Notes: generated by a model from the letters alone, not told the origin. 37,198 bases of DNA from a virus (IMGVR_UViG_2778261644_000010), one strand, 5' to 3'. Counted from the first letter of the stretch, positions 5,489 to 20,289 are shown. Program-made: numbers and translations.

Positions 5489-5764
5489 TCAGATTTCACC
5501 TTTTAATTTCATTGCAATTAGAGTTGCCAGAAATTCGGCTTTTTTTTCTGCGGGCAGATTCTTTCCGGTATGCACCAGGCACATTTTTTTGACACCTTCG
5601 TGAAGTGTTTTAACGTTGCCTGATGGACCGTCGATATCAACCACAGTGAATGGGGTTTCTTTATTTTCTGTTTTAATTACGTAGCCAATGCGCTTTCCTT
5701 CCAGATTCACCTCGTGAACAATGTCATCGGTAGTTACAACAGTGGCTTCATAATTGGTAATCAT
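5489..5764 (-). CDS. racC: Rac prophage protein RacC
   Basis: 91-aa product from the internal Met (MITNYEATVVTTDD), in the expected position upstream of recE. Confidence 0.7.
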   Translation of the reverse strand: MITNYEATVVTTDDIVHEVNLEGKRIGYVIKTENKETPFTVVDIDGPSGNVKTLHEGVKKMCLVHTGKNLPAEKKAEFLATLIAMKLKGEI

Positions 5765-5838
5765 GTTTTTCTCCTTAATTAAGGTTGAGCGAATACCTGC
5801 CATTTCTGGCATAAATTCAGTTTCGAATAGTCAATTAA

Positions 5839-6015
5839 TTAAAGTTCATGTGCCATCTGTTCTTTTTCGGCACATATTTCACTACAATATTTTTTCATTT
5901 CCGTCGTTGGGATAACTCCACGCATGAAATGAAGTGGTCTTTTAATGCTTTTGCTTTCTTCAATTCCTTTATTGCAAAGGTGGTAAGCACATTTTATTTT
6001 CTTAGTCTTCACCAT
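5839..6015 (-). CDS. ydaE: Small Cys-rich putative zinc-binding protein (YdaE-like)
   Basis: Hand-translated minus-strand ORF absent from the supplied track: [58 protein letters not shown], 58 aa. Lies between racC and kilR as ydaE does in Rac. Confidence 0.55.
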
Positions 6016-6230
6016 GACTCCGCCTTTACAGGTAAACCATCACAACCGAGGAAGACTTTAATCATGCAGTCAGAAATGCATGTTTTTGTAGTCAGGTTAC
6101 GAATATAAAGTTTTCGCTTTTTAATATTGTTTGCCGAGGCGATATATGTCCGGCCTTCATGAAGAACATAATCACCAGGAGTCACACACTGACGTGGTAT
6201 TTCATCAGTTCCGAAGTGATGTGCAATCAT
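6009..6230 (-). CDS. kilR: Cell-division (FtsZ) inhibitor KilR
   Basis: 73-aa product from the internal Met ([15 protein letters not shown]), recognised as KilR. First gene after sieB in the leftward operon. Confidence 0.8.
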
Positions 6231-6670
6231 AATTATCTCCATTTTTACAAATGAACTTTGTTGATGCGGTGCCTGGTGCCTCCAGGTGACTGCAACCAGT
6301 TAACAATTACAGTCGGCTTTCCCACCCAAACCAATAAGGACTAACATGACTTTTAACTGTGCCGCGTGCGCTTAGCCGCATTCACCGCATCACAAAATTC
6401 ACTTTAAAAAGGGCGGACATCAGTCGAACTTCAAGAAAAAACTGATGCCGCCAGGACTACACAAAGCAGTTTTGTTATTCACAACCGGAGGCGCACTCCC
6501 ACCATTTAAATTTAACAGACAAGACCGACTCTTTATGGATATCGGAAATGCGCCTTCGTGTTGTGCCCGGTTTTATTTCACCACCTCCGGGCTTCGGTGG
6601 TCTCTGCTATACCCCTACAGCGAGAGCTTGTGTTAACATTTCAATACCCTTACAGTCGAGAGTTATTGAT

Positions 6671-7159
6671 ATGTTGGATGTATTTACTCCATTGTTGAAA
6701 CTTTTTGCTAACGAACCACTCGAAAGACTTATGTATACGATTATCATTTTGGGTCTCACTCTCTGGCTGATACCGAAAGAGTTTACTGTCGCATTCAATG
6801 CTTATACTGAAATACCTTGGCTCTTTCAGATTATCGTTTTTTCCTTTTCTTTCGTGGTCGCCATTTCTTTCTCAAGATTGCGAGCACATATTCAAAAGCA
6901 TTATTCATTACTACCAGAGCAACGAGTATTGCTTCGTTTATCTGAGAAAGAAATCGCTGTATTTAGAGATTTCCTTAAAACAGGAAATCTTATTATCACT
7001 TCTCCTTGCCGTAACCCGGTTATGAAAAAATTAGAACGGAAGGGCATCATTCAACATCAGAGTGATAGCGCAAACTGTTCTTATTATCTCGTCACCGAAA
7101 AATACTCCCATTTTATGAAGTTATTCTGGAACAGCAGGAGTAGACGTTTTAATCGTTAG
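6671..7159 (+). CDS. sieB: Superinfection exclusion protein B (SieB)
   Basis: 162-aa product starting MLDVFTPLLKLFANEPLERL with hydrophobic N-terminal segments. Plus-strand gene embedded in the leftward operon, as for lambda and Rac sieB. Confidence 0.8.
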   Translation: MLDVFTPLLKLFANEPLERLMYTIIILGLTLWLIPKEFTVAFNAYTEIPWLFQIIVFSFSFVVAISFSRLRAHIQKHYSLLPEQRVLLRLSEKEIAVFRDFLKTGNLIITSPCRNPVMKKLERKGIIQHQSDSANCSYYLVTEKYSHFMKLFWNSRSRRFNR

Positions 7160-7311
7160 CTTACTGTGTGCTTCTCCAACCATCGGCGCGCACCAGTTTC
7201 GGTTTTAAATGTTTTGCTTTTGGTATACGTCATGGCAGTGAACGTTCCATCCTGGTTGGGGAATACGCCGCACACCAGGGATTCGTTATTGCCGAGGTCG
7301 ATTTTTTGCAT
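7156..7311 (-). CDS. ydaF: Small prophage protein YdaF
   Basis: Hand-translated 51-aa ORF MQKIDLGNNESLVCGVFPNQDGTFTAMTYTKSKTFKTETGARRWLEKHTVS. Convergent with sieB and overlapping it by 4 nt. Confidence 0.6.
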   Translation of the reverse strand: MQKIDLGNNESLVCGVFPNQDGTFTAMTYTKSKTFKTETGARRWLEKHTVS

Positions 7312-11339: not shown

Positions 11340-11759
11340 ATGGCAAAAGTATTAACACAGGAAGAGCGAGAAAAAATTAAAGGGCAGATTGTTGATCTCG
11401 TACGCCAGAGTGAGCGAGAGACGTTACGACAACTGGAAGCTAAAACAGGGGCAACCAGATATCTGATAAGTATTCTCGCCAAAGAGCTGGTTTCGAGTGG
11501 TGACGTATACAACTCTGGCTACGGGTTATTCCCGTCTGAGCAGGCACGTAAAGACTGGCAAAACGCCAGCAAAAAACTCTCGAGTGCAAAGTCGAAGGAA
11601 CCGGTTATGGTTGATCCTGACCTTATCTGCTCGTTATCTGACGGAGAAATACGTCGTTACGACAGGCGTCATAATATAATTTGTAGTGAGTGCCGTAAAA
11701 GAGAAGTTATGAAGCGTATATTGTCGTTTTATCAGGGAGATGTTCGGTATTTATTGTAG
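11340..11759 (+). CDS. Hypothetical phage protein
   Basis: 139-aa ORF from the ATG after GGGGAGG (MAKVLTQEEREK), with a C-terminal CxxC (ICSECRK). Last gene before the AT-rich island. Confidence 0.5.
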   Translation: MAKVLTQEEREKIKGQIVDLVRQSERETLRQLEAKTGATRYLISILAKELVSSGDVYNSGYGLFPSEQARKDWQNASKKLSSAKSKEPVMVDPDLICSLSDGEIRRYDRRHNIICSECRKREVMKRILSFYQGDVRYLL

Positions 11760-11933
11760 TGACGAGATTAAAGACCATTAATTCATATGTGAATTGACAT
11801 TTTCATGGCACAGGGTAGAGCTAGCATGGTTGTCAGTTTTGTGCCGACAACGGTCATTGCTTTCCTGATAGAAATGGCGATGATAACATGCTGTTAATTA
11901 CATCGCCAATACAAAAAAGTAATATAACTAAAA

Positions 11934-13961
11934 TCAAAGACTCATGTTAATAGTCATAACCTCCGAATCGTAATCTACTGATTTGATTACTGGGAAGCTA
12001 TGTTCCTGCTCCATGGGCGCAAGCAGAGCACCTGGTTTAAATACAAGATATTTTTTAGAGATTTTATAAGACTCACTGTTTATATGCGGAAATTTTATTT
12101 CATTATACTCGTAACGCTTAGTGTTGGCATGCAGTTGTGGTGGGTTTGCTATATATTTTTTAAAGTTGCCTTTTAATTCATCAATATTGTTATATAGCCT
12201 GTGCCAGGCAATAGGGTTAAATCCATTTTGTGAAATTACGGTTAGCAAATTTATCTCGTTTGAGGCAAAGTAGGCTAGAAGTATTTTCTCATCAATCACT
12301 GGTATTGAATTAAAGGAATATCCAACAAATATCTGGCTGCTGTTAATTATAAATCCAGCAAAATTATAATTCTTATTTTTGTCATAACTCCAACCTAACC
12401 TTTCAAAAATAACCTCTATATTATTTTTTATAAATTCTGTTTTCCTTACGACCTGTTCTCCTGCATGCTGAAGTATTTCAGATGTCCGGTACTTAGATAT
12501 TTCTGAATCAGTCGTAACTATAGACTTTGCTTCACCAATCAAAATCATATCATCTATCCTTGATAATAAATCAATTTCTTCCTCAATGGAGTTTATCTTG
12601 ATTCTTTTAGATACCGCTTTGTCATAGTCAGTTATAAAAGTATTGGTTCCGAGAACACGGTTTATTTTATCTACAACTTTTTTTTCGTAAGTCGTTCCTT
12701 TTCCAGCGAGATTAATATTAAAATGACATGCCCAACGCTCAATAAGCCTAAACATCACCGGCGCATTTAATGCACTAGTCAATAATGCATACTTATTTTT
12801 CTTTAATTTTATCAAAGGTTGACACCAGATATCTCCAGTTGGAGAGGAGTTGAATGTCAAAAAATCAAGAATCTTAGTAACTTTAACCACGCTCATTTCT
12901 GTTGCTTCGCACAAGGCGCGTTCTAATGAACTTGTTTGAACGGTTGGGCAAAACTCCCTTAATTTATTAACATTAAATACACTATCATCTTCTGGATATT
13001 TTTCAGTCTCAATATTTGCGATGAGCATCAATACTCTCATTACATTCAATACTTCTAACAAGCAAAAACCTTTACCAAAATCGTAACGTAACCATTCTTT
13101 GGGAAAATAGTCTTCAAGATGTTTTTCTTCCACTCTCCATTGTGCATTTATTGTTATTAATTCTTTCTTTGCATTTCTAATAGATGCAACCTTTGCCACT
13201 CTTTTTTTATTCTCACGAGTAATAAAAATATATTTATCGCTATCAAAATACTGAGCTATATCAGGTTGGGATGCGATGAGTGTCCGTTGGACAGAAAGTC
13301 TTTCTTTTCGTTGACTGCTGTTATTAAATGCAATTTCAAACGGTGTGTTTGGTTGCTCTATTTTGAATGTTTTATGTTCAGACTCAACTTCGATTAAATT
13401 ATAATCACTCCATAAAACGCATTGCCAAAGATGGATGTAAGTATTATATAACTGAGATAACCAACTTTCTTGTTGGATGAAAGACAATTCATCGATTGGA
13501 TTAGTGGAAATTATTATTTGACTATTTTTTTCTATACCTCTTAGGCATTCTCTTATGGCAAACTGGAAGCCATCGACAGCTCCATGAACGATCTCTCCTA
13601 AGCTTTGTTTATTCCCTAGTTTATTTGCTTCAAGCAATATGCCATTAACATTTGTAGTTGTTGTCTTTTTTGCAAGTTTAAGAGCAACGGCTGATGTTCT
13701 ATTGGAGCTTGCAATATAAGAGATCATTAGTTTTTCATAGTTTGTTTTAGGTGCCCGTCTATACAAATCTGCTAACGCCTCTCTAATATCCTTCAGCACA
13801 CTATAGATGATTATACCCATTGTATAGACTTTTTTATCTCTCGCAGAAGAATTTAATTCAACCTTAGTCCACCCCTCATTCCATTTCTCAAGATTAAAAT
13901 CAGCACGTGTTGGTGACTTGATTTTACCCTTAATAATTTTGCTAATAAATTGATCACTCAT
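11934..13961 (-). CDS. Large orphan protein of unknown function (675 aa), candidate defence gene
   Basis: Long uninterrupted ORF in a visibly AT-rich block, on the strand opposite the flanking phage operons. AAGGA RBS and a perfect TATAAT (minus strand; plus coords 14055-14060) upstream. No P-loop or RT motif seen. The C-terminal third has a possible PD-(D/E)xK-like arrangement (EEIDLLSRIDDMILIGEAKS). Confidence 0.75.
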   Translation of the reverse strand: MSDQFISKIIKGKIKSPTRADFNLEKWNEGWTKVELNSSARDKKVYTMGIIIYSVLKDIREALADLYRRAPKTNYEKLMISYIASSNRTSAVALKLAKKTTTTNVNGILLEANKLGNKQSLGEIVHGAVDGFQFAIRECLRGIEKNSQIIISTNPIDELSFIQQESWLSQLYNTYIHLWQCVLWSDYNLIEVESEHKTFKIEQPNTPFEIAFNNSSQRKERLSVQRTLIASQPDIAQYFDSDKYIFITRENKKRVAKVASIRNAKKELITINAQWRVEEKHLEDYFPKEWLRYDFGKGFCLLEVLNVMRVLMLIANIETEKYPEDDSVFNVNKLREFCPTVQTSSLERALCEATEMSVVKVTKILDFLTFNSSPTGDIWCQPLIKLKKNKYALLTSALNAPVMFRLIERWACHFNINLAGKGTTYEKKVVDKINRVLGTNTFITDYDKAVSKRIKINSIEEEIDLLSRIDDMILIGEAKSIVTTDSEISKYRTSEILQHAGEQVVRKTEFIKNNIEVIFERLGWSYDKNKNYNFAGFIINSSQIFVGYSFNSIPVIDEKILLAYFASNEINLLTVISQNGFNPIAWHRLYNNIDELKGNFKKYIANPPQLHANTKRYEYNEIKFPHINSESYKISKKYLVFKPGALLAPMEQEHSFPVIKSVDYDSEVMTINMSL

Positions 13962-14117
13962 AACAATTAATTTCCTTGATTAATTAAATCCATATATGCA
14001 AGCCAGTACATCTGGTTCATTCTTTATTCGTCCTAATGCTTGTCTTAAGGGGAATATTATAACGTTGTAGATGAAGAAACTACTAGCGTAATCTATTAAA
14101 TTTAGACCGCAACTTCG

Positions 14118-14189
14118 AACTTCCGCTCCTCACACACAGCGGACCTTGTGACCTTGATTTCTGCACGCTCCTTGCTACGAGCGGAAGTT
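14118..14189. other. GC-rich inverted-repeat element (11-bp stem, about 50-nt loop)
   Basis: AACTTCCGCTC (14118-14128) is the perfect reverse complement of GAGCGGAAGTT (14179-14189). Lies in a locally GC-rich block inside the AT-rich divergent intergenic region. Confidence 0.35.
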
Positions 14190-14416
14190 GGTGCAGCGAC
14201 TTGTCTTAGCCAGAGGAGGCAGGGTCAACAACACGACATTGCTAGTTAGATATGTATCTAATAATGAGGGACAGGTCACATTTACCTATAATCCAAAACA
14301 TTATTATGGCTAGGGAAATGTGTACCATACAAAAGATTCATCTACTGCATAGCCTAATTACTACAAACAAATTGTTCGTCTTTGCTTCGAACATTATGCC
14401 CAAAAGGAGAACCTAG

Positions 14417-14764
14417 ATGGTTCCAATCCAAGAAGTTGATTTCCACACAGATAAAAAAGTTATCTATAAGCTACATATTATTTCTCCAACAGGGGCTGCC
14501 CCCTTTTTTACAGAGGTGTTTGTTTACGACTCTGAATTTAATCCACCTTTTGCATCAATGGTTACTTTTCAGCAGCAGTTTCAGGATTCCAAAGCTGCGT
14601 TTACTCATGTGCTTTATTGGGTGGAAAACTACAGTAAAAAGCAAGGTTATACTGTCAACCGAATCAACAACCCATGTAACTGTGAATTCCTATCACAAGC
14701 GGACCAACAACAATCAGTCCAAAGTGCAGGGCTCAATATTCAAGTTAAAGTAAATGAGGTATAA
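14417..14764 (+). CDS. Hypothetical 115-aa protein, first gene of a two-gene cargo operon
   Basis: ATG preceded by AAGGAGAACC. AT-rich. The overlapping alternative-frame ORF 14382-14753 lacks an RBS. Followed 97 nt downstream by the 282-aa gene on the same strand. Confidence 0.55.
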   Translation: MVPIQEVDFHTDKKVIYKLHIISPTGAAPFFTEVFVYDSEFNPPFASMVTFQQQFQDSKAAFTHVLYWVENYSKKQGYTVNRINNPCNCEFLSQADQQQSVQSAGLNIQVKVNEV

Positions 14765-14860
14765 AAATGCCAATCACGGCGACAGTTTGTCCGTTACAGC
14801 TTCGCCTCCACTATAAACCTGCACGTCTTAGCGACGTTAGGTGAGTCAGAGTAAATATCT

Positions 14861-15709
14861 ATGTTCAGCGAATTAGTAAAGGAATTTCATAAAAAAGGAA
14901 TTCCTACAGATAAACCAGATTTTTATGATCATCCAAACTTTATTAAGGAAGAGCAACGAGATCCAAGCTACTTGATTAAGTTTGCAAAATTTGTTGCAGA
15001 AAAGCCATACTCTAATGATTATATAGAAAAGGCAGAGAGTATAATTTTTGATGTGGCAAAGATATTAAGCAAGCAGCTTTTAGATAATGGTCGTCAAGGT
15101 GCTTGTGTGGATATATCAGGAATTCTTGCTCGCATACTGGAACTTAAAGGTATTTGGTGTGCTTGCATTAAAGGCTCTTGCACAATTGATTTCCCCCAAA
15201 AGTCTAATGAAAAAACAACATACTTCTGGTCATCAGATCACGGTGAATTTACTGCTGGACATGCTTGGGTATTTGCTCCACCATTCTCTATAGTGGATAT
15301 CAGCTTGAAGCAACAATTATACACAGGTACTAAAAAAAATTATATCCCTGAAATTATCATGGTAAAAGATGCTGTCAAAACAACATCAACTATAGAGGAC
15401 ATTATCAGCCCTGAAATCAGGATGCTAATGAACGCTCAAGGAATTTCAAAGCATCTTATGCTTAAATATGGCGCATCCGAAATGAATATCATCCAAGAAA
15501 TATTCCCTGCCCAATTGATAGAATTTAATGAAACAAAATTCAAGTTTTCGCCTGTTGCTGTTCATGCGTTTACAGAGTCATTGTCGGGTATGAAAAATAT
15601 GAAGTTTAATGGACTATATCCTTACGATATGTACAGGAAAACCATAAAAGATAAAGTGCCAAATATTGTCTCACTATTAAATCCGGGTGACGCCTACGAT
15701 GCAACCTGA
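14861..15709 (+). CDS. Putative transglutaminase-like / papain-fold cysteine protease or deamidase (282 aa)
   Basis: Motifs in the order and spacing of the transglutaminase-like core: Cys in GACVDISGILARILELKGIW (C82), His in GHAWVF (H134) and Asp in SIVDIS (D146). AT-rich. Confidence 0.6.
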   Translation: MFSELVKEFHKKGIPTDKPDFYDHPNFIKEEQRDPSYLIKFAKFVAEKPYSNDYIEKAESIIFDVAKILSKQLLDNGRQGACVDISGILARILELKGIWCACIKGSCTIDFPQKSNEKTTYFWSSDHGEFTAGHAWVFAPPFSIVDISLKQQLYTGTKKNYIPEIIMVKDAVKTTSTIEDIISPEIRMLMNAQGISKHLMLKYGASEMNIIQEIFPAQLIEFNETKFKFSPVAVHAFTESLSGMKNMKFNGLYPYDMYRKTIKDKVPNIVSLLNPGDAYDAT

Positions 15710-16223
15710 TTCAGGTGTTAACGTCAGTTCCTCGCTCAAAGCGGACTGGAAGGTTAGCTTGCGTCGGACTTGGCGTATTTAAAGAAGTGCTGGTGGTGAC
15801 TGGTTGCTGTGTCCCATTTCCACAGAAAAAATCTGAGAAGTTATACCCATTCGTTGTATTGAATCACTGACGAGACAGCATCATATTTATCAGGGCTGGT
15901 GTAGGTCCAATACAGGAGGTTGTGGTGCTGGTTCTCAAATGCGCGCTGGCTATTGCGGCTGTAATGGCAATTTATTGTCTTGCTATTGCTCTTATGGATC
16001 ACCTTTCTGATTGATTTCATACTGGCGAGGTAACGGGGGTTAAGTAGTATGGCTTCGGGTGCTTGAGGCTATCTGCCTTGGGCATGAAAACCAACGGCAG
16101 ATAGAAAAAGCCCCAGTTGATATTACGCATCTGGCAAGAGGCTTAACATTAATCTGGGGCCCAATCTATGCCTTACTAACGTAGGTTAGTCTCTTACGTT
16201 AGTAAGGCAAGAAGAAGCGGGCT

Positions 16224-16379
16224 ATGAAGCAGCAAAAGGCGATGTTAATCACCCTGATCGTCATCTGTTTAACCGTTATAGTGACGGTACTGGTAACGAG
16301 GAAAGACCTCTGCGAGGTACGAATCCGAACCGACCAGACGGAGGTCGCTGTCTTCACAGCTTACGAACTTGGGGAGTAA
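16224..16379 (+). CDS. Hok/Gef-family type I toxin (51 aa)
   Basis: Hand-translated MKQQKAMLITLIVICLTVIVTVLVTRKDLCEVRIRTDQTEVAVFTAYELGE, which closely matches recalled Hok/RelF-type toxins. Upstream hairpins CCTTACTAACGTA/TACGTTAGTAAGG and CTATCTGCC/GGCAGATAG resemble hok mRNA fold-back elements. Confidence 0.8.
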   Translation: MKQQKAMLITLIVICLTVIVTVLVTRKDLCEVRIRTDQTEVAVFTAYELGE

Positions 16380-16842
16380 GAGGACCAGCGGGGAGAAATC
16401 CCCGCAACCTCTGATGTATTATGCATCCTCAACGCAGCCACAGTTAACCTGATTGGCGGGTTTACTTCATCTGTAAATATTTTTATAAAAATAATGCCCA
16501 CGCACAGCATAAAACAAAAAGTATTACAGATAAAAAAGGAACGTAATGTGCAGATTTGTTGTTTTCCATATTTACTCACCTTAATATGATTAACCCTGAT
16601 AGGGTTGTTATTTCAGCGGTTTTCAAATGAGATATTATGGTGATCTGACAAATTTGCATAACATTAAAATTTAATTTGTTTAACCGCTTTTAATAATAAG
16701 CGTTGTTTGTATCCCAGCAATCTGTTGTTTGGTTTTTATTCCATTAAGGTGGGGGCTTTACACTGGAACCAGTTTATTTATACTTTATACGTCAGCCTGA
16801 ACAACTGGCATCTGCTGCACTGCGCCATCGAGAGATTGAGAA

Positions 16843-19314: not shown

Positions 19315-19743
19315 ATGGGTTTTCGTAGCGCATCAATTCTTACGTTGATTATTAGTGGGATTATTATCGGGTGCACTGATGCTGTATCGACAAATTATCA
19401 TGACCGTACATCATATTACTCCGATAAAGCAATAGAGACACAGTATGTGAGTTCATCTGAACGTACTTCTGATGTTAGTGAGGATATCCGTCTGTATGCC
19501 CATCAAATCAAGAGCGCCATCGAAAAACAGTTCGGGGATGCGAGTAAGTATTCAGGAAAAGAGTGTACACTGAGAATGCATATGGCCCCGAATGGCCTTC
19601 TACTGGAGGTTAAAAGAGAAAGTGGAGACCTCGATTTATGTCGTGAAGCGATGAATGCGATAAAGAATGCTGATATACCTGCCCCCCCTTCGCCGGAAGT
19701 ATATAAAGTATTTCAAAATGGGGTGCTGGATTTTAAACCCTGA
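19315..19743 (+). CDS. Lipoprotein with TolA C-terminal (domain III)-like region
   Basis: Signal peptide with lipobox IIGC. C-terminal 85 aa (YAHQIKSAIEKQFGDASKYSGKECTLRMHMAPNGLLLEVK...IPAPPSPEVYKVFQNGVLDFKP) closely resembles the recalled C-terminus of E. coli TolA, which ends ...PKPPSQAVYEVFKNAPLDFKP. TATATAAT promoter-like element and GAGGAAAAATG RBS upstream. Confidence 0.7.
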   Translation: MGFRSASILTLIISGIIIGCTDAVSTNYHDRTSYYSDKAIETQYVSSSERTSDVSEDIRLYAHQIKSAIEKQFGDASKYSGKECTLRMHMAPNGLLLEVKRESGDLDLCREAMNAIKNADIPAPPSPEVYKVFQNGVLDFKP

Positions 19744-19893
19744 TATTTATTGTTTTGTAATAAACGGTTTCGGCTTAGGTTTGTTCTGACACAGCTACGG
19801 CACTGAGCTAAATTTAGCGGATAGTCAGCTCTGAGCCAGTGGCGGACGTAACAACTACTATTGCTGAGATTTTAATGGATTGAGGAGCAAGAA

Positions 19894-20289
19894 GTGGGAT
19901 TAAAGAAAATCGTTATGTTGACTTTTTGGGTCGGTTTTGTTGCGGGATGCACACCTTTACACCCTTCAGATTGCCACAAAACTACTGCTACAGGTAGTTG
20001 CAGTTCAGGACGCTGGGATGATCAGGATGAATGGGGGGCGCAAGCGCGGGGAATCAGAGCTGCAATTAATGCCAAACTTGATGAGCCGCATAACTGGAAA
20101 GGGAAAAAATGCAGGTTGCATATGGAATTCTCTCAGGATGGCACGGCGTTAAAAATATCTACCAGTAACGGTGATAAAGCCTATTGCGAAGCGATAAAGT
20201 CCGCAGCTCATAAAGCCAAATTTCCGGCCTTCAACAATCCGGAAGTCTACAGAGATTTTCAGAAATCTGGCTTTGACATGCGAGGTTAG
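19894..20289 (+). CDS. Second lipoprotein, divergent paralog of the TolA-domain-III-like lipoprotein
   Basis: GTG start after GAGGAG; lipobox VAGC. Shares the K-x-C-x-L-x-M ... G ... C-x-A-I-K-x-A ... P-x-x-x-x-P-E-V-Y-x-x-F-Q pattern with the upstream lipoprotein. Confidence 0.65.
   Translation: MGLKKIVMLTFWVGFVAGCTPLHPSDCHKTTATGSCSSGRWDDQDEWGAQARGIRAAINAKLDEPHNWKGKKCRLHMEFSQDGTALKISTSNGDKAYCEAIKSAAHKAKFPAFNNPEVYRDFQKSGFDMRG

Follow-up and report, generated by a model that had tools for sequence, protein, structure and literature searches.

What a compact, GC-rich inverted repeat is doing in the middle of an AT-rich intergenic region is the question raised by a block of about 130 bp at positions 14105-14235 of IMGVR_UViG_2778261644_000010, a virus-derived stretch of 37,198 nucleotides (nt), here called the window, that is a Rac-like lambdoid prophage of Escherichia coli. 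A sequence-only reading had singled out the block within a cargo island, and had offered a small regulatory RNA, a structured leader, or a recombination or DNA-binding site as what it might be. With a probability that we put at about two in three, the block would be a site-specific recombination junction, the seam at which two gene cassettes of an integron-like system abut. The last of the three options would then be the one to stand, favoured by the make-up of the block as a junction of two cassette ends and by the breakpoints found at such junctions in related loci, and the two RNA options are not supported by the evidence given further on.

The description of the block itself holds up well. 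Its 11-bp arms, AACTTCCGCTC and GAGCGGAAGTT, when read directly from the window are exactly where they had been placed (14118-14128 and 14179-14189), and with a repeat finder they grow to 24 nt at 75% complementarity (14118-14141 with 14166-14189). GC content is 0.53-0.54 in the 100-nt intervals starting at 14100 and 14150, 0.41 in both of the intervals straddling the block edges, 0.28-0.34 over 13800-14099 and 0.33-0.34 over 14250-14399, so the GC-rich block in an AT-rich gap is real. The open reading frame (ORF) map likewise confirms that this gap, 455 nt long, parts a minus-strand gene for a 675-residue protein from a divergent plus-strand operon for proteins of 115 and 282 residues. The 11-bp repeat alone is not beyond chance and is by itself weak evidence; under a first-order Markov model of the window, simulations yield on average 1.1 perfect inverted pairs of 11-mers lying no more than 80 nt apart, as against six distinct pairs observed. 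It is because the core of the block is conserved, and recurs in hundreds of loci, that the element is to be taken as real.

That core, 64 nt in length (14122-14185), belongs to a conserved family composed of a unit A, a 20-nt spacer and a unit B. Alignment gives the family unit A as TCCGCT-yyTCGCTCAy-AGCGGA and unit B as TCCGCT-yyGTGCCArr-AGCGGA, with a spacer of variable sequence and with flanks that lean to AAC(K) and (M)GTT. Since A and B are imperfect mirror images of one another, a long inverted repeat would arise wherever two cassettes abut. A 72-nt core is 87.5% identical to an intergenic piece of E. coli TUM1880 and MEI2A-0323, at the icd end of an e14-like prophage, and the proteins beside the TUM1880 copy are unrelated to those of the window island. 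Relatives at 73-80% identity occur on 78 Enterobacterales plasmids (of Klebsiella, Enterobacter, Pantoea, Citrobacter and Kosakonia), where they adjoin genes for DsbA, NcrY, McrC, GNAT and others; a pattern built on the arms matches 17 viral contigs and 48 stretches of genomes, almost all of them from Enterobacterales, with one or two matches per genome among 185,579 species representatives; and a consensus query matches 2083 of 5426 complete E. coli genomes, at 1-5 places in each (median 1). No annotated feature lies under the junction copies at the 40 places listed for this E. coli query. ORF clustering with Pfam finds no recurrent neighbour protein, 150 neighbours falling into 134 families of which only the ubiquitous LysR regulators recur, and the copies lie mostly between convergent 3' ends and not upstream of genes. 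A blastn search of a phage collection returned no relative of the region, and no tRNA or tmRNA remnant was found in the window. In metagenome-assembled genomes (MAGs) labelled Alphaproteobacteria, Chloroflexia, Acidobacteriota and Bradyrhizobium (loci L049, L061, L068 and L071) the same arms surround other cores, GCGCCA, GGGTCA and GGTCCA, and the units are arranged otherwise, for instance as B-20-B, as b-20-B or in tandem at distances of 30-70 nt; the family of sites may extend far outside the Gammaproteobacteria, under a different grammar.

Within the family the order of the units is strict. Position weight matrices (PWMs) for A and B, which at 14 bits hit reversed sequence 3 times per 1.25 Mb as against hundreds of hits on the real loci, were applied at 16 bits to 131 fetched loci, and there the units run B-cargo-A-20 nt-B-cargo-A, alternating on one strand, with units on both strands in only six loci. 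The A-to-B steps number 162 and are exactly 20 nt long in 145 cases, and the 162 B-to-A steps enclose cargo of 341-6217 nt. Arrays reach five A-B junctions within 8 kb. The distinct B..A cassettes, 152 in all, have a median length of 1227 bp, a 10th-90th percentile span of about 0.7-3 kb and a full range of 64-6261 bp. Lone B and lone A units exist too, and they bracket genes in the order B...A, as seen in a single-unit scan and on following the second TUM1880 copy into other E. coli. Beside the units lie AbiH, McrBC, HEPN, SIR2-STAND, AbiJ, a retron-type reverse transcriptase and restriction enzymes, as well as a GIY-YIG nuclease and modules for nickel and polymyxin-type resistance.

Comparison between genomes shows the B-cargo-A segment to behave as a discrete, exchangeable unit. 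A cassette of 1195-1196 bp carrying a GIY-YIG gene is 98.7-99.5% identical in five unrelated contexts, namely e14 at icd, a CP4-57-like island, two Ag43/YeeP islands and, as in the window, the lambdoid DUF977 hotspot, and where pairs of these copies differ in their neighbour junctions the similarity runs out at the very first base of B on one side and, on the other, no more than a few bases from where A ends. A swap of cargo is seen in two loci (L019 and L023) that have both flanks in common, with the cargo between the same B and A being 2947 nt in one and a different 1342 nt in the other. Pairs that share only their left side diverge from core position 57, and pairs that share only their right side diverge at core positions 0-10 or 48-50, so that breakpoints cluster at positions 0-10, at 57-66 and just to the left of GTGCCA. 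The divergence points at 48-50 and 57 bracket GTGCCA (51-56), and a second exchange point would lie at or left of TCGCTCA. In one chimeric junction three arms have changed together (TCCGCA/TGCGGA), and directly past GTGCCA they give way to a fourth arm of the standard form. Among single cassettes, the most widespread one seen encodes a 314-residue GIY-YIG-type nuclease (locus L004, 7777-8721, minus strand, and about 297 further E. coli genomes); the protein is named 'GIY-YIG nuclease family protein' by the Prokaryotic Genome Annotation Pipeline (PGAP) in some records, and has a weak NCBIfam hit to group-I-intron endonucleases.

A candidate for the enzyme is found beside the sites. In eight fetched loci, five of them from E. 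coli, a 200-residue protein with the annotation 'site-specific integrase' is encoded no more than a few kb from junctions. Its sole Pfam match is PF00589, over residues 35-184, and its matches to Xer and FimB/E-type models are weak, the best NCBIfam score being that of an XerA-type model at 46 bits against a cut-off of 220; XerA, XerC and XerD models are all reached far below their curated cut-offs, and a comparison by sequence with solved structures gave no match. The protein has relatives in at least 8000 clusters, the best 120 listed being 76-96% identical across the Gammaproteobacteria, and its hosts include E. coli, Providencia, Proteus, Pantoea, Erwinia, Idiomarina, Pseudoalteromonas and a Cycloclasticus MAG. 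Distinct copies that protein similarity alone had brought in, and that are at least 83% identical, were compared. Ten of them have upstream sequence; in all ten an A' unit (..TCGCTCAT(A/G)AGGGA) ends 40-50 nt short of the integrase ATG, and in seven the distance is 40 nt. A hairpin and a B' unit (GCAGCC-CT-GTGCCA-rr-AGCGGA) start 20-22 nt past the integrase stop codon in 12 of 13 copies, the exception (L160) being one without B'. Variation in A' and B' falls only outside TCGCTCA and GTGCCA. Bounded in this way by A' and B', the integrase module takes the place of the 20-nt linker. In Idiomarina and in a marine MAG, too, a B' unit follows the integrase stop, as does a weaker one in Proteus (in an island at icd); among these three an A'-like sequence is found upstream only in Proteus. 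A variant site, ..CCGGCCA(g)AAGCGGA, accompanies integrases whose identity is 58-65%. The integrase-anchored loci contain 92 units in total, of which 88 share the strand of the integrase; 65 kb of control loci have a single unit, which follows a Scandinavium homologue of the 282-residue gene of the window. Genomic arrangement across these loci shows a linkage of the integrase gene to the sites, and that linkage, together with the variation of the site with integrase lineage, makes the integrase a candidate for the cognate recombinase.

Two further features of the integrase loci can be recorded here. In L132, L133, L135, L145 and other integrase loci a hairpin (CTCAAATCTCC..GGAGATTTGAG) stands about 40 nt before the integrase ATG; it would sequester a GGAG ribosome-binding site, which suggests translational control of the recombinase. 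In Idiomarina sp. X4 (L136, 7880-8000 and 15512) an element with the order int-B'-cargo-A, whose cargo is a PhoPQ-like/EptA/PAP2 module, has its integrase-proximal boundary abutting the gcvP terminator hairpin CCCGCT-TTTT-AGCGGG, the stem of which resembles the unit arms. Terminator hairpins may be primary targets, and this would fit the preference of the family for gene 3' ends.

Put together, these features suggest a mechanism in which each cassette would start with a 22-bp B unit and end with a 22-bp A unit, abutting A and B units standing 20 nt apart. A and B would be core sites of a tyrosine recombinase, with inverted arms around asymmetric 6-7-bp cores, GTGCCA and TCGCTCA; by comparison among loci the inverted arms, the asymmetric spacer and the exchange points bracketing GTGCCA agree with such a core-site layout. 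The enzyme would be the conserved 200-residue integrase with its gene between an A-type and a B-type unit. Recombination of B with B, or of A with A, would excise cargo and linker as a circle that carries one A-20-B junction, and the circle would re-insert at a resident junction as integron cassettes do. The 130-bp block of the window is, at the probability already given, best explained as the A end of one cassette, the 20-nt linker and the B end of the next, followed by a subterminal module that ends at 14215-14227.

A number of points weigh against this account. There is no integrase in the window, and in E. coli the integrase is found in 904 genomes as compared with 2083 with junctions. The cores at the window junction are themselves mutated, which makes function at this copy doubtful. 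Many array ends are a lone B or a lone A, with the partner decayed or absent, and the fixed 20-nt spacer is a feature to which the model gives no role. The breakpoints at the edges of the conserved 46-nt linker could come from homologous recombination as well, and a search for an empty site with joined flanks came no nearer than an internally deleted cassette in E. coli A20. Catalysis, circles and empty sites are here predictions of the model, and the PWMs were built from the family itself, the integrase-anchored set of loci being independent of them. The system is apparently undescribed, neither the six characteristic 14-15-mers nor a description of the system having been found in a literature that was covered in part, and so a name for it may exist.

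The rival that survives best, itself an unlikely one, takes the 64-bp A-20-B segment as a miniature inverted-repeat transposable element (MITE) of an insertion sequence (IS)-like A'-int-B' element, which would insert between genes and often in terminator-like hairpins, the cassettes then being nothing other than the genes left between insertions. The imperfect mirror symmetry of A and B would suit terminal inverted repeats, the integrase gene sits exactly where the 20-nt spacer would be, the elements lie mostly between convergent 3' ends, and the Idiomarina boundary at a CCCGCT-TTTT-AGCGGG terminator hairpin is what such targeting would give. Yet lone units placed as B...A around accessory genes are impossible to derive from a split or an intact A-x-B, the mobile segment kept in five contexts is B-cargo-A and not A-x-B, cargo is swapped between fixed units in an otherwise identical locus, and no target-site duplications or direct repeats are seen at the edges.

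Somewhat less probable again is that the units are conserved for another reason, and serve as homology patches for RecA-type recombination, or for illegitimate recombination provoked by hairpins, with no dedicated recombinase taking part. Breakpoints at the edges of a conserved linker are what homologous exchange within identical linkers gives, and most of the junction-carrying genomes are without the integrase. However, to the right of core position 50 there are only some 14-20 imperfect bases and exchange occurs there nonetheless; the strict 20-nt spacing, the single orientation and the alternation of A and B need a directional mechanism; and the recombinase gene is bounded by both cores in distant taxa, with a site that co-varies with integrase lineage.

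There remain the RNA and regulatory readings. Rfam 15 gives no match overlapping the element at E-values up to 10 in the window, or up to 1 in six loci with consensus-like copies, and the folding of both strands that had been proposed as a check gives energies no better than those of shuffled sequence (z of -0.55 and -0.65). Covariation was sought in 39 distinct copies, gathered with loop-anchored patterns that left the arms free. The covariation term of RNAalifold is 0.01 kcal/mol, and a long-range fold receives no significant covariation in this sample; the local hairpins show 5 doubly changed cells against 2.0 +/- 1.2 in shuffles, a value reached by 16 of 500 shuffles and so marginal. Arms and loops are conserved as sequence, and covariation is clear only at the yy/rr pairs of unit B, from which unit B can be taken as an 8-nt arm, GTGCCA and an 8-nt arm (8-6-8). 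This arm-spacer-arm layout is that of tyrosine-recombinase core sites such as lox, FRT and dif-type sites. A scan of 13900-14500 puts no promoter-like or terminator-like site on the element, its one site being at 14001-14017, and no T run of the kind expected at an intrinsic terminator follows unit B. As far as sequence can tell, then, the block would not be an RNA, and the small RNA and the structured leader of the sequence-only reading are not supported by Rfam, folding or covariation. A small RNA, structured leader, operator or terminator for the divergent 675-residue gene and the 115/282-residue operon is highly improbable in spite of this gap being the only intergenic region able to hold both promoters, of a possible hairpin folding and of loops conserved in sequence, given the results just listed, copies beside unrelated genes with no recurrent neighbour, and homologues of the 282-residue gene with no junction upstream.

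Individual candidates for a regulatory element were also tried and set aside. Three fetched homologues of the 282-residue protein, in five loci of Scandinavium, Halomonas and Vibrio, have no A-spacer-B junction upstream, and so the junction would not be the leader of that operon; the Scandinavium locus holds a single A-type unit only, after the gene. A retron or another noncoding RNA tied to the neighbouring genes is disfavoured, the island proteins having no significant family hit and being unrelated to the proteins flanking the TUM1880 copy. For a sigma-54 promoter (TGGCAC, on the reverse strand of unit B) no -12 TTGC element is seen by eye at the right spacing; the bases of a boxA-like CGCTCTT are variable between copies, again by eye; a LysR T-N11-A operator has the wrong spacing, and LysR genes face the element with their 3' ends; and the sfx core of the R64 shufflon (GTGCCAA) has different arms, the likeness being taken as coincidence.

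If the block is a junction of cassettes, as we prefer, the window is best explained as holding two cassettes in tandem at the DUF977-to-hok hotspot of the Rac-like prophage. The three island genes are located between the DUF977 gene and the hok/DUF1367 region, a spot that holds other cargo, for example AbiH, in other E. coli strains. Only five PWM hits of 8 bits or more occur in the whole 37 kb, all on the plus strand and in the order B, A, B, A, B (B at 11833, A at 14122, B at 14164, A at 15724 and a B-like unit at 19825). The first cassette would span 11833-14143, from the B unit at about 11833-11854 to the A unit at 14122-14143, and carry the 675-residue gene, and the second would span 14164-15745, from B at 14164-14185 to A at 15724-15745, and carry the genes for the 115- and 282-residue proteins. 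No significant match in Pfam, PADLOC, NCBIfam or PHROG is obtained for the three island proteins.

The proposed left end of the first cassette is a degenerate B-type unit on the plus strand (11833..11854; TCAGTT-TT-GTGCCG-AC-AACGGT followed by CATTG; 12.7 bits), and the flank upstream of it (..TTGACATTTTCATGGCACAGGGTAGAGCTAGCATGGTTG) is like that of intact B units at the same prophage site in loci L003 and L209. The 675-residue ORF lies on the minus strand at 11934..13961, between this B-like unit and the unit A at 14122; the protein has no Pfam, PADLOC or PHROG hit and a sub-threshold NCBIfam match to FlhF, an FlhF-like NTPase similarity at residues 418-512 (16.9 bits against a cut-off of 585, E-value 0.0026). 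Its right end is an AACT flank with unit A (14118..14143, plus strand, the unit proper being 14122-14143; TCCGCT-CCTCACACAC-AGCGGA; 37.3 bits), where the core reads TCACACA in place of the family TCGCTCA. The 20-nt inter-cassette spacer that follows on the plus strand, CCTTGTGACCTTGATTTCTG (14144..14163), is identical in E. coli TUM1880. The left end of the second cassette is unit B with an AGTT flank (14164..14189, plus strand, the unit proper being 14164-14185; CACGCT-CCTTGCTACG-AGCGGA; 21.1 bits), in which the core is TTGCTA in place of GTGCCA and the 5' arm is mutated too, CACGCT in place of TCCGCT, whereas the TUM1880 copy retains CCCGCT-CCGTGCCAGG-AGCGGA. A subterminal module (14190..14227, plus strand) ends in the box GGAGGCAGGGTCA at 14215-14227; a box GGGAGCAGGTCA stands 30-32 nt past unit B in ten distinct loci and is mirrored before unit A in some. 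With both cores of this junction mutated and the integrase absent from the window, the seam is probably non-autonomous and possibly an inactive relic.

Beyond the seam, the second cassette carries on the plus strand the ORFs for the 115-residue protein (14417..14764), which has no family hit, and the 282-residue protein (14861..15709), which has homologues in Halomonas, Scandinavium, Aeromonas and Vibrio. Fifteen nt past the stop codon of the latter starts the unit A at 15724-15745 (15720..15745 with its AACG flank, plus strand; TCAGTT-CCTCGCTCAA-AGCGGA; 30.3 bits), the right end of the second cassette, and listed E. coli genomes that share only the right-hand part have homology to the window beginning at 15720-15733. 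Next to it, in prophage backbone (15746..15787, plus strand), comes a decayed spacer with a B-like sequence (CTGGAAGGTTAGCTTGCG TCGGAC-TTGGCGTATT-TAAAGA), which we propose may be the B remnant of an old docking junction. This right boundary also follows a different cassette in L003 and L209, and the left and right boundary sequences of the window are the same around the AbiH cassette of L003 and around its deleted remnant in L209. A query of joined flanks (11700-11832 with 15746-15900) matched 2510 E. coli genomes, nearly all of the matches listed covering the backbone half only, and the cassette pair of the window is fixed together in eight other genomes. Those eight genomes differ from the window between the second cassette and DUF1367 (5512-7182 in E. 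coli GPEC464, locus L002, against 15746-16842 in the window) and have a DUF1971 gene in place of the hok region of the window, which is why the window query aligned in two pieces with 91% coverage.

Several neighbouring features are of interest in their own right. A second decayed B-type unit at 19825-19846 (TCAGCT-CTGAGCCAGT-GGCGGA, 18.6 bits) is preceded, within 19765-19846, by a flank (..CTGACACAGCTACGGCACTGAGC..) resembling the one found in other prophages to the left of lone B units. The unit is placed between ORFs of 142 (19315-19743) and 131 residues (19894-20289), about 1.5 kb downstream of a Q-like gene, and may be another cassette docking site of the prophage. At 16169-16209 and 16224-16379 the window has a perfect 15-bp inverted repeat (TGCCTTACTAACGTA ... 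TACGTTAGTAAGGCA) and, directly following it, a Hok/Gef-type ORF; the repeat probably belongs to the fold-back elements of a hok mRNA. In Scandinavium goeteborgense (L078, 5001-5870) a homologue 82% identical to the 282-residue protein of the window occurs without the 115-residue partner, directly after the type VI secretion system genes TssF, TssG and SciN, and an A unit (position 5848) stands 35 nt past its stop codon.

On a wider scale we hold, tentatively, that the Gammaproteobacteria may harbour a widespread and unannotated integron-like cassette system distinct from integrons, with cassettes of about 0.7-3 kb, 22-bp B and A cores, a 20-nt linker and a 200-residue recombinase in the linker position; this system would supply prophage hotspots, integrative islands and plasmids with accessory and with anti-phage genes. 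If this is true, A-20-B junctions together with lone B and A ends would mark the limits of mobile cassettes in over a third of the complete genomes of E. coli, and the same signature would do so on no fewer than 78 Enterobacterales plasmids and in 65 or more prophage and genome stretches, which come from many enterobacterial genera. Hochhauser et al. 2023 (PMC10121019) point out that many E. coli defence islands show no mobile element that can be detected, or nothing beyond an integrase, and that how they are mobilised is unclear. The assembly of such 'integrase-only' or apparently immobile islands could be explained in this way, and a concrete, testable mechanism would be at hand for the mobility gap described in PMC10121019. 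The unit grammar could also serve in the discovery of new defence genes, the three uncharacterised genes of the window among them, and a 200-residue recombinase with 22-bp sites might suit as a compact recombination tool.

Among known systems, integrons are the obvious comparison. In common are arrays of small cassettes (here with a median of 1.2 kb) of mostly one or two genes, their separation by an imperfect palindrome of some 60-70 bp in which a variable centre is flanked by two inverted 'simple sites', a tyrosine recombinase gene beside its cognate site, the occurrence of cassettes across unrelated replicons, and some defence genes within a miscellaneous cargo. The attC sites of integrons have consensus boxes R'' (RYYYAAC) and R' (GTTRRRY) at their ends and L'' and L' inside. 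The classical R and L boxes of attC are not seen here, where the units are TCCGCT-N10-AGCGGA and the flanks have only a tendency to YAAC(K)...(M)GTTR. The integron integrase IntI is a protein of about 320 residues with an extra domain, whereas the recombinase here has 200 residues and PF00589 only. There appear to be two heterologous cores in use, TCGCTCA and GTGCCA, which alternate; the integrase is inside the array between an A and a B unit, and the mixed orientation of the cargo leaves no common promoter logic of the Pc type, unlike in integrons. For a folded bottom strand, as in attC, the asymmetry of the A and B loops (TCGCTCA against TGGCAC as reverse complement) would give fixed fold-back mismatches, which would be compatible with such folding.

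Other families share single traits. With repetitive extragenic palindromic (REP) sequences, bacterial interspersed mosaic elements (BIMEs) and MITEs the units have in common that they are short, GC-rich, imperfect palindromes, unannotated and at gene 3' ends; here there is a two-unit grammar around cargo and a tyrosine recombinase, not a RAYT or DDE transposase. REP/BIME membership is disfavoured by 1-5 copies per genome as against tens to hundreds, and MITE membership by the transposed segment being B-cargo-A, by the lone B...A units and by the lack of direct repeats seen at the edges. Tycheposons have tRNA-derived att repeats and full-length integrases; cargo units with or without a tyrosine recombinase of their own that pile up in tandem at a docking site are common to both. 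The FimB/FimE invertases are like the recombinase in size and in an architecture of little more than the catalytic domain, residues 36-185 aligning to the 198-200-position profiles PRK09871 and PRK09870, but the similarity is very weak (E-values of 2e-4 and 6e-3, about 20 bits against cut-offs near 220), and the nearly uniform orientation of the units suggests excision and integration rather than inversion of the FimB/FimE type.

The likeness to the Xer-related systems is one of logic. The pdif modules of Acinetobacter plasmids are accessory modules between short core sites that alternate in orientation or type, and the bounding of accessory modules by alternating short recombinase core sites is common to the two. 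Here the junctions consist of two 22-bp units 20 nt apart as against one 28-bp site, and the units look unlike the dif consensus by eye. The nearest conceptual relative in the literature seems to be the XerC-like/dif-like system of Tn6022, where an element-encoded XerC-like recombinase has a dif-like site immediately downstream of its gene (PMC11014353).

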